From a virus (Duplodnaviria > Heunggongvirae > Uroviricota > Caudoviricetes): a stretch of 64,000 nt of DNA. Made by a program: the position numbers and the translations under genes. The notes under the pieces were generated by a model, which ran no database searches, was not told the origin of the DNA, and saw only the letters and a program-made list of their open reading frames with translations. Positions 11,283 to 13,745 of this stretch are shown in pieces (position 1 is the first letter of the stretch; each line of letters opens with the position of its first letter). The stretch is from the IMG/VR virus record IMGVR_UViG_2939521961_000011. The stretch is one strand, 5' to 3'.

Positions 11283-13745
11283 ATGAGCACTGATAAAGAA
11301 GAATTTGCGCTATATTGCGAAGCAAAAAATGACAAAGTCAGAAAACGTCTGGGAATTAAAGGTGGTTTTTACTGGACTACAGCAAAAAAATTATCTGTTG
11401 CCATCTCCCGCTGCATTACCGCAATGGATGACAACGATTATGATGAAGACGACTTTAAAAAACCCGTTCGCGTCCATTTACCCGTTGTGAATGACCTTCC
11501 ACCTGAAGGCGTGTTTGATACCGAATTCTGCAACCGATACGAAAAAGGCGGGGAAGATGGCATTACAATGGTATTTATCGCGCCCTCTCCCTCCGTGCAG
11601 GAGAAACCAGCCAGTACTGACAATACCAACGTCAACGGCGAAGACATGACGGAGATTGAGGAGAATATGCTCCTGCCGGTTTCTGGTCAGGAGCTGCCCA
11701 TTCGCTGGCTTGCGCAACACGGCAGCGAAAAACCAGTAACGCACGTTGCACGGGAAGAACTTCAGGCATTACATATAGCACGGGCGGAAGAACTGCCGGC
11801 TGTTACTGCCCTGGCCATTTCTCACAAAACAAAGCTGCTCGACCCGCTGGAGATTCGCGACCTTCACAAACTGGTACGCGACACTGACAAAGTTTTCCCT
11901 AATCCCGGTAATTCAGACCTGGGACTGATAACTGCTTTTTTCGAGGCATACCTGGACGCTGACTACACTGATCGGGGTCTGCTGACAAAAGAGTGGATGA
12001 AAGGAAATCGTGTTTCGCGTATCACCCGTACGGCTTCCGGTGCAAATGCCGGTGGCGGGAACAAAACCGATCGCAATCCGAATTTAGTACACACCTTCGA
12101 TACGCTGGATGTGGAGATTGCAGCAGCCACACTTCCGATGGATTTTAATATTTATGAAATTCCGGGCAGCGTTTATCGTCGCGCAAAAGAAATCGTCCTG
12201 AAAAGAGAAAGTCCGTTCAAAGAATGGTCCGCAGCACTTCGCGCAACCCCGGGTATTCTGGACTATTCCCGCGCCGCTATTTTTGCACTTATCCGGAGCG
12301 CTCACCCTGAGTTTTATCACTACCCGGGACGCCTTCAGGGGTATATCAACGCCTACTTAACGGAGACTGATCACGAGAACCCCAGCAAGGAAACTCTCAC
12401 TGCTGCACGACATACACCGGAAAAAGATATCCTGGAAGAAGTTAACCGCGAACTGTCTGCTAAGCAGGAAACAGAAGAAGAAGAAAATGATGAAGAAAAA
12501 CCGCAACCATCTTGCGCAATGGCAGATGAACAGGCAACGGCTGAAACAGTGGAACCGGATGCAACTGAACATCATCAGGACACGCAGCCGCTGGATGCTC
12601 AGTCACAGGTAAATTCTGTTGATGCGAAATATCAGAAACTGCGGGCAGAACTCCATGAAGCCCGGAAAAACATTCCGCCCCCAAACCCTGTCGATGCAGA
12701 CAAATTACTGGCTGCCTCTCGCGGAGAATTTGTTGAAGGGATTAGCGACCCGAATGATCCGAAATGGATTAAGGGGATCCAGACCCGCGATTCTGTGTAC
12801 CAGAACCAGCAAGAAACGGAACAGAACGACCAGAAAGCGGAACAAAACAGCCCAAATGCGTTACAAAACGAGCCAGAAACGAAACAGCCTGAACCAGTGG
12901 CGCAACAGGAAGTGGAAAAAGTCTGCACCGCCTGCGGTCAGACCGGCGGCGGCAACTGCCCTGATTGTGGCGCTGTGATGGGCGACGCAACATACCAGGA
13001 AACATTCGATGACAAGAACCTGGTTGAAGTTCAGGAAGACGATTCGGAGAAAATGGAAGGCGCTGAACATCCACACAAGGAGAATGCTGGCAGCGCTCAG
13101 GACCACGCCAGCGATAGTGAAACTGGCGAGACGGCAGATCCCTTAATTACGGTGAACGGTCATCACGTTATCACATCCACCAGCAGGACGTGTGACCATC
13201 TAATGATCGACCTTGAAACCATGGGAAAAAATCCTGATGCCCCGATTATCTCAATAGGTGCAATATTTTTCGATCCGCAAACCGGAGATATGGGACCGGA
13301 ATTTAGTAAGACTATCGATCTGGAAACTGCTGGCGGAGTCATTGATCGGGACACCATTAAATGGTGGCTTAAGCAATCACGCGAAGCGCAATCTGCCATT
13401 ATGACCGATGAAATCCCGTTAGATGATGCACTGTTACAATTGCGGGAATTTATCGACGAAAACTCCGGTGAATTTTTTGTTCAGGTCTGGGGAAATGGAG
13501 CCAACTTCGACAACACGATTTTGCGCCGTTCATACGAACGGCAGGGGATCCCCTGCCCGTGGCGTTACTACAACGATCGCGATGTGCGCACAATCGTTGA
13601 GCTGGGGAAAGCCATAGACTTCGATGCCAGAACGGCTATTCCATTCGAAGGTGAGCGCCATAATGCACTTGATGACGCCCGTTACCAGGCAAAATACGTT
13701 TCAGTTATCTGGCAAAAACTGATCCCGAGTCAGGCTGATTCTTAA
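11283..13745 (+). CDS. RecE-like protein with C-terminal DnaQ-type (DEDDh) 3'-5' exonuclease domain
   Basis: N-terminal and central regions share long blocks with RecE at 57952..60603; C-terminus has motifs [19 protein letters not shown] and HNALDDARY. Confidence 0.75.

Follow-up and report, generated by a model that had tools for sequence, protein, structure and literature searches.

The window analysed here is a stretch of 64,000 nt of Caudoviricetes DNA (IMG/VR record IMGVR_UViG_2939521961_000011). Two RecE-type genes were found in it, in the adjacent prophages A and B. The gene in prophage A encodes an 820-aa protein in which a RecE-type scaffold is followed by a DEDDh exonuclease head. 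The gene in prophage B is a canonical recE, with recT next to it. The initial annotation of the window had presented the two genes as both versions of a natural domain swap on a shared scaffold. The features of both loci are listed in the table.

Table. Features of the 820-aa gene, its operon and the recE-recT pair in the window.
Feature	Position (nt)	Strand	Basis
DicF small RNA, upstream in the same early-left (dicBF-type) operon	10591..10642	+	Rfam RF00039, 75 bits (gathering 48), model positions 1-52 of 52
dicB, cell-division inhibitor	10817..11005	+	Identical region in NC_013361.1, WP_000449175.1; inside ORF 10712..11005
DUF1482/ydfD-like small gene, directly upstream	11002..11190	+	Annotated as DUF1482 family protein in NC_013361.1
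820-aa gene, RecE-type scaffold plus DEDDh exonuclease head	11283..13745	+	ORF; PF06630 and PF16473 (Pfam); identical gene WP_000102117.1 annotated 'exonuclease'
N-terminal RecE-type domain, PF06630 Exonuc_VIII, aa 57-189	11451..11849	+	Pfam, E 2.6e-34
Middle domain M1, aa 216-385	11928..12437	+	Conserved, all-alpha; DRGLLTKEW...NAGGGN.TDR...LDYSRA...LTETDH
Acidic/Q-rich linker block, aa 404-540	12492..12902	+	85-90% identity to the RecE of the window
Cys4 zinc-ribbon-like motif, C548, C551, C559, C562	12924..13007	+	Read from the alignment with RecE
Swap junction, aa ~621-625, last RecE-alignable residues	13143..13157	+	End of BLASTP match, aa 623/609; windowed identity
DEDDh 3'-5' exonuclease head, aa 639-810	13197..13712	+	PF16473; DexA match; catalytic columns; AlphaFold2 and Foldseek
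Excisionase, where recT stands in the RecE version	13818..14069	+	Annotated as excisionase family protein
Integrase, end of prophage A	14089..15384	+	Annotated as site-specific integrase
Canonical RecE, 883 aa, adjacent prophage B; PDDEXK head aa 632-867	57952..60603	+	PF06630 and PF12684; NF007259
recT ORF	60539..61405	+	PF03837, E 1.5e-56

As shown in the table, DicF, dicB and a ydfD-like gene lie upstream of the 820-aa gene on the same strand, as do DicA/DicC-type regulators, and the order is that of the Qin prophage of K-12. A DUF1482/ydfD-like homologue was located upstream in 75 of 80 related IMG/VR loci, and the same gene order was observed in phages mEp460_ev081 and vB_EcoS-640R1. In the early-left (pL, or dicBF-type) operon of a Qin/mEp460-like lambdoid prophage, the 820-aa gene stands directly ahead of xis-int. 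It was correctly pointed out in the initial annotation that no RecT-like gene follows it; the next genes are those for excisionase and integrase. No RecT is annotated in the whole matching prophage of strain 11368. Genes for an annealase, SSB or anti-RecBCD function are likewise not annotated in prophage A, which therefore has no Rec module in the sense of Zheng et al. 2025. No sigma-70-like site was found on the plus strand ahead of the 820-aa gene. Chi sites in the strain 11368 copy of prophage A numbered 5 in the presumed active orientation and 2 in the other, and those of prophage B numbered 10 and 2, which is near the E. coli average in both cases. The counts of 5 and 2 are not distinctive and lend no clear support to the idea that prophage A, having no Rec module, would be rich in Chi.

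The extent of the similarity between the 820-aa protein and RecE was mapped by pairwise alignment, as had been proposed in the initial annotation. BLASTP aligned aa 23-623 of the 820-aa protein with aa 1-609 of RecE at 47% identity (E 3e-159). The identity was unevenly distributed, being about 25% over aa 1-228, about 35% over aa 259-376 and 85-90% over aa 404-623; in one common block 28 of 30 residues were identical. At the DNA level, nt 1188-1865 of the gene were 81.6% identical to the recE gene (blastn). All the shared blocks quoted in the annotation were recovered, including the Cys4 motif, and a windowed identity of 25-90% across about 600 aa goes beyond short low-complexity segments. Neither BLASTP nor windowed identity revealed similarity to RecE past aa 623 of the 820-aa protein, which corresponds to RecE aa 609 and marks the swap boundary. 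In keeping with this boundary, the 820-aa protein scored 1000.2 bits against the NCBIfam RecE equivalog NF007259 (cut-off 1269 bits) and covered only profile positions 1-603 of 877, whereas the RecE of the window scored 1677.6 bits. Pfam gave no match in the 820-aa protein for PF12684, the PDDEXK (RecB-like) 5'-3' nuclease domain.

The annotation of a canonical RecE-RecT pair elsewhere in the window was borne out by PF06630 and PF12684 in the one protein and PF03837 in the other. On our reading of the sequence, recT probably starts at 60596, overlapping the recE stop. The Rac prophage RecE (exodeoxyribonuclease VIII), which is accompanied by RecT, has the PF06630 N-domain, M1, linker and Zn-ribbon in common with the 820-aa protein (47% over about 600 aa), and occupies the same place in the early-left operon, right before xis-int. 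The two architectures differ in what follows: the RecE C-terminus is a PDDEXK 5'-3' nuclease (PF12684) with recT behind it, and that of the 820-aa protein is of DEDDh type without recT. The claim that the window holds both versions of a domain swap was upheld, with a refinement. The swap itself was supported by HMM matches, sequence and predicted structure, but the N-terminal and middle domains of the two proteins are only 25-45% identical, and M1 of the 820-aa protein shares 77% identity with the M1 of a PDDEXK-headed Citrobacter sedlakii RecE as against 44% with that of the RecE of the window. Judged by these alignments, the 820-aa protein and the RecE of the window are not direct swap partners.

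The C-terminal part of the 820-aa protein matched PF16473 over profile positions 2-177 of 177 (227.2 bits against a gathering score of 27, E 1.5e-67). Among solved structures, phmmer recovered T4 DexA (8kel, E 7.9e-8), and the five DEDDh residues D643, E645, D743, H793 and D798 of the head aligned with D7, E9, D119, H186 and D191 of DexA. An AlphaFold2 model of aa 626-820 (pLDDT 87, pTM 0.84) was most similar to the same structure in Foldseek (E 3e-11, TM 0.72), followed by RNase T and Orn/REXO2; the matches also included the DnaQ domain 8h18. The model indicates that the head has an RNase H-like DnaQ fold. The motifs quoted in the initial annotation hold all five catalytic residues, and the replacement of the RecE nuclease by a DEDDh domain that it had proposed agrees with the family assignment and with the DexA-like predicted structure. 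From family membership the head is predicted to be a Mg-dependent 3'-5' exonuclease, of a polarity opposite to that of RecE. The 820-aa protein is best read as a putative modular nuclease of five parts, namely an N-domain, M1, an acidic linker, a Cys4 Zn-ribbon and a DexA-family DEDDh head. A fold search with M1 gave no match.

Although T4 DexA (exonuclease A; 8kel/8ken) is the best match of the head among solved structures in both sequence and structure, their identity is only about 24%, and DexA is a stand-alone protein of 227 aa from a virulent phage, with extra loops. The names given to the family suggest another kind of substrate. PF16473 is named for the exoribonuclease Rv2179c of Mycobacterium tuberculosis, and NCBI often lists the 820-aa protein as '3'-5' exoribonuclease'. 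Together with RNase T and oligoribonuclease/REXO2 as the closest structural neighbours after DexA, and with the location of the gene between the DicF region and xis-int, this would suit an RNA exonuclease that processes or degrades the pL/dicBF transcript (DicF maturation, int/xis control) or attacks host or competitor RNAs. Rv2179c is, however, a distant stand-alone bacterial 3'-5' exoribonuclease which says little on the substrate of the head, and it was not among the matches of the head in the sequence search of solved structures. The closest solved relative, DexA, is a DNA exonuclease, the scaffold is common to the DNA exonuclease RecE, and stand-alone homologues occur in DNA recombination modules; an RNA substrate is in our judgement distinctly unlikely.

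One of these stand-alone homologues (57% identical) is part of a P22-type Rec module whose gene order is cIII, kil, Rad52-type annealase, SSB, unnamed gene, DEDDh gene, Abc2. According to the main text of Zheng et al. 2025, DnaQ-like 3'-5' nucleases are found in lambdoid Rec modules and also sporadically next to int, where they are not counted as members of the module, and 3'-5' exonucleases usually inhibit rather than promote recombination (PMC12315714). The stand-alone DEDDh relatives seen in our analysis occur in both of these settings, in a Rec module and next to int. The same text judges the 'RecE-2' proteins to be without a nuclease domain, and describes neither the fusion to a RecE scaffold nor the alternation with PDDEXK plus recT (PMC12315714). 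A whole-word literature search for a RecE-DnaQ fusion returned nothing relevant.

Another DexA relative in E. coli has been linked to defence. Kang et al. 2025 reported that EcD, a DexA homologue that occurs in E. coli as a stand-alone protein, degrades T4 DNA and, supplied from a plasmid, confers protection against T4 (PMC12153337). This HREX/EcD-type exonuclease belongs to the same PF16473/DexA family and is encoded in E. coli on mobile elements. EcD is the only close relative with functional data, which point to anti-phage defence and so speak against the lytic-cycle reading favoured below, and a protein of its type in locus L024 is 38-39% identical to the head. Prophage DEDDh nucleases with auxiliary domains can also defend against phages (PMC13344964). 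The 820-aa protein might by analogy be a prophage nuclease for defence or superinfection exclusion, whose head degrades incoming phage DNA with modified cytosines and spares host DNA. The residues used by Kang et al. to define EcD do not favour this. EcD, of about 190 aa, has Ala at the position of DexA D90, and its recognition positions hold Trp and an acidic residue (PMC12153337); the L024 protein likewise has A78 (numbered from MIDTET) at the D90 position. The head, which is fused to a 620-aa scaffold, instead keeps the Asp of this tetramer residue (D715), and differs at the proposed hmC-recognition residues of DexA, with Tyr (Y763) in place of W152 and, close to a gap, either Lys or Ala at the D169 position depending on the alignment; none of the fused homologues aligned is acidic there. 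PADLOC gave no match for the 820-aa protein, nor for RecE. The gene stands in a repressor-controlled lytic operon, with the toxic neighbours dicB and ydfD and no promoter-like site of its own, and the alternative cassette at its position is a recombination pair. A defence function is therefore considered unlikely. Of the two EcD primer sequences used to search IMG/VR, the reverse-primer 23-mer had no match and the forward-primer 17-mer occurred in 26 loci, 6 of which code for a DexA-like protein that stands alone; this search did not retrieve the exact sequence of EcD.

The genes downstream of the two head types followed a simple rule in Enterobacteriaceae. Among intact PDDEXK-headed genes whose downstream DNA could be read, all 30 were directly followed by a recT-family gene, starting 0-14 nt past the stop codon. 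RecT-HMM matches were found downstream of none of the 18 DEDDh-headed genes in GTDB species genomes, and no RecT was present within the flanks of the DEDDh-type E. coli prophage copies at 80 IMG/VR loci. The locus scan was made with a 6-sequence alignment of M1, a 22-sequence version being too diverse. Repressor, YdaS/YdaT and replication genes recurred upstream in the DEDDh-type loci, and no annealase was among these recurring genes. The exchanged unit is a cassette, either the PDDEXK head together with recT or the DEDDh head alone, and this observation is new here. Lambdoid prophages of Enterobacteriaceae carry either cassette at the same genomic position and on the same kind of scaffold.

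When the proteins were clustered on M1, DEDDh and PDDEXK head types interleaved, so the exchange of head cassettes has recurred. The junctions of other pairs with the same scaffold likewise lay within the linker ahead of the head. Repeated swapping of the two cassettes by recombination in the linker would best explain these alignments. A further head type was found on the scaffold in P0139 and P0190. Its assignment as Rad52-like, weakly hinted at by Pfam (E 0.12), was not confirmed by BLASTP against a Rad52-type annealase or by a search of solved structures.

The shared scaffold is itself a mosaic. The Zn-ribbon is absent from most orthologues of other genera; in L024, a Dam-type methyltransferase has the same Cys4 motif at its end. 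The first ~250 aa also occur in a second, unrelated form of YdfE type, represented by an 823-aa sibling that is 67.5% identical to the 820-aa protein across aa 270-820. The first 256 aa of YdfE, encoded by a K-12 pseudogene in the dicBF operon of the Qin prophage, are 93% identical to the N-terminus of this sibling. The pseudogene has the same place after dicB-ydfD, is cut by IS2 and lacks M1, linker and head. On this comparison ydfE is the remnant of the sibling form, and the N-terminus is exchangeable as well. The notion that K-12 YdfE is an N-terminal fragment of the 820-aa protein itself was abandoned after a direct BLASTP showed no similarity.

Identity to orthologues of other genera was 27-33% in the fast-evolving N-domain and 49-71% in M1 and the head. 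Synonymous sites are saturated between genera, so the comparison is only qualitative: M1 and the head are conserved, in contrast to the N-domain and linkers. At this level of sequence comparison, M1 and the head are evidently under purifying selection. This bears on the possibility that the gene is a decaying, functionless chimera, produced when prophages recombined illegitimately. EHEC genomes harbour many mosaic and degraded prophages, truncated copies with ORFs of 255-766 aa exist, and two representatives have lost catalytic residues, all of which would fit decay. Against it, intact genes of 700-833 aa occur in many genera, nearly all fused homologues retain the catalytic residues, M1 and the head stay conserved despite saturated dS, sequenced phage genomes such as that of mEp460_ev081 contain the gene, and the exact 820-aa protein was found on at least 1000 contigs. 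Decay is already disfavoured and hardly credible.

The reading we tentatively favour, at slightly less than an even chance, is that the 820-aa protein may be a lytic-cycle exonuclease for DNA 3' ends which works without a phage annealase. From the operon layout the gene, like dicB, would be silent in the lysogen because it is under a DicA/CI-type repressor. After induction or infection, the scaffold would bring the head to its DNA substrate, and the head would remove nucleotides at free 3' ends by two-metal catalysis. The protein would act alone or with host recombination functions, since no phage annealase or RecBCD inhibitor is present. Its tasks could include trimming of 3' tails or flaps and end processing of phage DNA that is replicating or recombining; a DEDDh-headed protein would not provide an annealase with the 3' tails it requires. 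The homology to DexA, whose accepted roles include scavenging of host DNA, could also be taken to mean that the 820-aa protein, like T4 DexA, converts host DNA fragments to mononucleotides during lytic growth. To our knowledge, however, temperate lambdoid phages do not degrade the host chromosome, a RecE-type scaffold of 620 aa is unneeded for bulk degradation, and the strict alternation with the RecE-RecT pair speaks for a role in end processing, so scavenging seems very improbable.

M1, together with the variable N-domain, may act as a targeting module, bringing interchangeable effector heads (PDDEXK plus RecT, DEDDh, and at least one further type) to one specific DNA structure or host protein in lambdoid lytic growth, a proposal we hold to be rather doubtful. 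Standard RecET recombineering does not require the N-terminal ~600 residues of RecE. Since the same scaffold is under selection with either head, its task must be independent of the production of 3' tails for annealing. If M1 is such a module, the N-terminal ~600 aa of RecE would function independently of nuclease polarity and annealing, and the DEDDh-headed form would represent a phage strategy, for end processing or counter-defence, that dispenses with an annealase. The family also bears on two claims made in 2025, namely that host RecBCD and Chi are needed by lambdoid phages lacking a Rec module, and that the DexA homologues of bacteria serve against phages.

The architecture is widespread and has already been annotated and catalogued, so the window is no special case. 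In 1275 of 5426 complete E. coli genomes, the gene was present with 80% or more of the query covered. Any function it has would be widely relevant, given its presence in roughly a quarter of these genomes, and EHEC strains often carry several copies.

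The 820-aa protein of prophage A aligned with the RecE protein of prophage B at 47% identity (BLASTP, aa 23-623 against aa 1-609, E 3e-159), so the long shared blocks described in the initial annotation are not confined to short low-complexity segments. Alignment in windows revealed a mosaic, with about 25% identity over aa 1-228, about 35% as far as aa 376, and 85-90% across aa 404-623, where DNA identity to recE was 81.6%. The last stretch holds the central Cys4 motif (C548/C551/C559/C562), and the DRGLLTKEW...NAGGGN box is identical at 28 of 30 positions in the two proteins. 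Past aa 623 of the 820-aa protein and aa 609 of RecE nothing could be aligned, which maps the boundary of the proposed swap. Pfam assigned PF06630 to both proteins. The 820-aa protein additionally has PF16473 over the complete domain (E 1.5e-67), and RecE has PF12684 (PDDEXK). The 820-aa protein fell under the cut-off of the NCBIfam RecE equivalog and matched only profile positions 1-603.

In the C-terminal nuclease domain (head), the DEDDh positions are filled by D643, E645, D743, H793 and D798. A search of solved structures with the head matched phage T4 DexA (8kel/8ken, E 7.9e-8); these entries were assigned to wild-type DexA and the S87A/D90A mutant through the T4 dexA gene and the describing paper. 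DexA was also the top match of an AlphaFold2 model of the head (60 homologues, pLDDT 87; E 3e-11, TM 0.72), followed by RNase T, Orn/REXO2 and a DnaQ domain. PF16473, the DEDDh residues and the predicted DexA-like model all point to a DEDD exonuclease fold. The observation thus holds, the earlier interpretation of a domain-swapped RecE-like protein is supported with refinements, and there is good support for predicting a DEDDh exonuclease of the DexA family on a RecE-type scaffold. In two fused representatives, P0133 and P0159, catalytic residues are replaced (E to K with D to A; K, N and G), and the heads may be inactive. At locus L125 the first Asp is changed to Gly, possibly by sequencing error or decay.

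To survey the scaffold, a profile of M1, its conserved middle domain (aa 216-385), was scanned against one genome per GTDB species. The 57 loci found were nearly all labelled Enterobacteriaceae (Citrobacter, Enterobacter, Kluyvera, Klebsiella, Atlantibacter, Phytobacter, Kosakonia, Salmonella, Escherichia and others); heads were PDDEXK in 32 and DEDDh in 18. For each of the 30 PDDEXK-headed genes that were intact and had readable DNA downstream, a locally built RecT HMM, cross-checked with Pfam on six examples, matched a gene starting 0-14 nt past the stop. A frameshifted PDDEXK gene (L159) was without RecT. No match was found within 6 kb on each side of the 18 DEDDh-headed genes, which had excisionase and integrase directly downstream, and RecT was absent from all 80 IMG/VR E. 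coli loci with a DEDDh head. Because recT follows every one of these PDDEXK genes and lies near no DEDDh gene, the unit exchanged is either 'PDDEXK head plus recT' or 'DEDDh head alone'.

The two head types interleaved when M1 sequences were clustered (UPGMA on identities, not a proper phylogeny). M1 of the 820-aa protein shared 77% identity with M1 of a PDDEXK-headed RecE from Citrobacter sedlakii, but 44% with M1 of the RecE of prophage B. The nearest M1 neighbour of DEDDh-headed L139 was PDDEXK-headed (82%), and in Kluyvera georgiana two head forms were 65% identical across the first ~500 aa and divergent thereafter. These comparisons indicate that heads were exchanged repeatedly, with junctions within the acidic linker.

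The window is E. coli chromosome of O26 EHEC type and contains two lambdoid prophages in tandem, head-to-tail. In O26:H11 strain 11368 and many further genomes, a gene annotated 'exonuclease' (WP_000102117.1) is 100% identical to the 820-aa gene. Full-length DicF lies upstream of dicB, and the gene is therefore a member of a dicBF-type operon. The sequenced phages mEp460_ev081 and vB_EcoS-640R1 carry it too, in the shared order repressor, dicB, ydfD, exonuclease, xis, int. The gene lacks a separate promoter-like site, and the K-12 counterpart of the operon is DicA-repressed; the gene is thus presumably expressed only once derepressed. In strain 11368, prophage A adjoins rspB instead of prophage B, and ~50 kb upstream a degraded Qin-like remnant contains a second 'exonuclease' gene (2472 bp, 823 aa by length) after dicB-ydfD. 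The window gene has as many as 8 matches in an O26 genome.

Positions of features in the window and in related loci (L numbers)
Feature	Location	Strand	Remarks
Prophage A	1 to ~15,400		Closing genes: HTH repressor, DUF1391, 216-aa ORF, DicF RNA, dicB, ydfD-like DUF1482, 820-aa gene, xis, int
DicF small RNA	10591-10642	+	Full length, Rfam 75 bits; upstream of dicB, prophage A
820-aa gene	11283-13745	+	Prophage A
Chi site	13177-13184	-	Within exonuclease gene
Prophage A integrase	End 15384
Prophage A/B junction	~15,400-15,460		Tail-fibre and cargo genes of prophage B come directly after the prophage A integrase
Prophage B	~15,450 to 63,306		Closing genes: recE, recT, small ORFs, xis, int
Chi octamers	40852-54733 and 15686	-	Prophage B
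recE	57952-60603	+	Prophage B; 883 aa
P22-type module with DEDDh gene	L170-L173 4322-6859		E. coli
ydfE	L003 6079-6999		K-12
Second 'exonuclease' gene	L174 7128-9599 (NC_013361.1 2162127-2164598)		Strain 11368
DEDDh exonuclease and methyltransferase	L024 4465-6269	-
474-aa ORF	L160 5374-6798		Citrobacter braakii
474-aa ORFs	L153, L154 5356-6780		E. coli, Shigella

Most members of the head family stand alone, are ~185-190 aa long and belong to prophages of Enterobacteriaceae. An E. coli homologue (57% identity) lies inside a P22-type recombination module with the order cIII, kil, Rad52-type annealase, SSB, unnamed gene, DEDDh gene and Abc2 (anti-RecBCD). A Salmonella homologue is the final early-left gene ahead of xis/int in a prophage, with an annealase-free vicinity, a position matching that of the 820-aa gene. 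Lambdoid Rec modules include DnaQ-like 3'-5' nucleases, with sporadic DnaQ genes 'very near int' (Zheng, Casjens, Smith et al. 2025, PMC12315714), and phages without a Rec module were proposed there to depend on Chi and RecBCD. Chi counts in the prophages were not decisive; the whole window has 16 sites against 2.6 expected from shuffles. In prophage B, ten of the 12 octamers lie on the minus strand, chiefly in the early-right/late-regulatory half. The reading we tentatively favour is that the 820-aa protein acts as a lytic-cycle DNA 3'-end exonuclease without a phage annealase, its polarity, substrate and biological role being what we infer; that it would instead be an RNA exonuclease is unlikely, and that it would scavenge nucleotides very unlikely. 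EcD, a stand-alone E. coli homologue of DexA, digests T4 DNA and has a protective effect on cells (Kang et al. 2025, PMC12153337, which also solved the DexA structure). Unlike EcD, the window head keeps Asp at the DexA D90 position, with Tyr at W152 and no acidic residue at D169; by the criteria of that study it is predicted not to be EcD-like. PADLOC gave no match to the window protein either, and a defence nuclease is unlikely.

The scaffold is itself modular. The commonest form in the 80 IMG/VR loci is an 823-aa protein, which has aa 270-820 in common with the window protein (67.5% identity) and an unrelated N-terminus. This N-terminus and the product of ydfE, a K-12 pseudogene, are 93% identical over 256 aa; ydfE is interrupted by IS2 and has the same operon position as the exonuclease gene. 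Judged from sequence, K-12 ydfE represents the N-terminus of such an 823-aa DEDDh exonuclease (L033 etc.), truncated by IS2. Across genera, amino-acid identity was 49-71% in M1, 55-65% in the head and 17-45% in the N-domain and linkers, with synonymous sites saturated; selection therefore acts on M1 and the head, and it is hardly credible that the gene is a dead chimera. M1 was predicted to be mostly helical (pLDDT 79), and its model had no informative match in the PDB. The Zn-ribbon is absent in most orthologues from other genera. L024 carries a stand-alone EcD-like DEDDh exonuclease and, immediately after it, a D12-class Dam methyltransferase whose C-terminus bears a RecE-type Cys4 motif (CDACGHHGGGYCPDCGPVTGDATY), which makes the Zn-ribbon a mobile mini-module.

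Other RecE-type scaffolds (P0139, P0190 (C-terminal ~290 aa), P0266 and P0228) have heads that are neither PDDEXK nor DEDDh. One type is PHROG 2489, with a weak, unconfirmed Rad52-like Pfam hint (E 0.12), and another is PHROG 26058, without annotation. They may be the 'RecE-2' proteins without recognisable nuclease of Zheng et al. 2025 (PMC12315714). The 474-aa ORF of Citrobacter braakii joins a RecE-type N-terminus to sequence matching the RecT HMM (E 1.4e-34), which suggests that a deletion fused recE to recT; the E. coli and Shigella forms are headless with no RecT match. Salmonella fusion proteins combine the same DEDDh domain with DUF551 (P0440) or with both DUF551 and DUF550 (P0442), another sign that it may be a mobile module of prophage early regions.

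At ≥80% query coverage, 1275 of the 5426 complete E. coli genomes contained the gene. At least 1000 contigs encode exactly this protein, under names including 'exonuclease' and '3'-5' exoribonuclease', with the PF06630+PF16473 architecture precomputed. PHROGs 2082 and 20376 match aa 432-819 and aa 471-819, the part with linker, Zn-ribbon and DEDDh head. Catalogues already list this architecture, and papers from 2025 describe related observations. In the literature as far as it was searchable, neither the strict alternation of cassettes with recT, nor the repeated exchange, nor the connection to ydfE was found. On one contig with the label of a Veillonella parvula MAG (L113, JAGZPX010000007.1), a copy of the gene has an M1 96-97% identical to that of the window protein, with dicB, ydfD, xis and int present; this is most likely mis-binned E. 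coli DNA.
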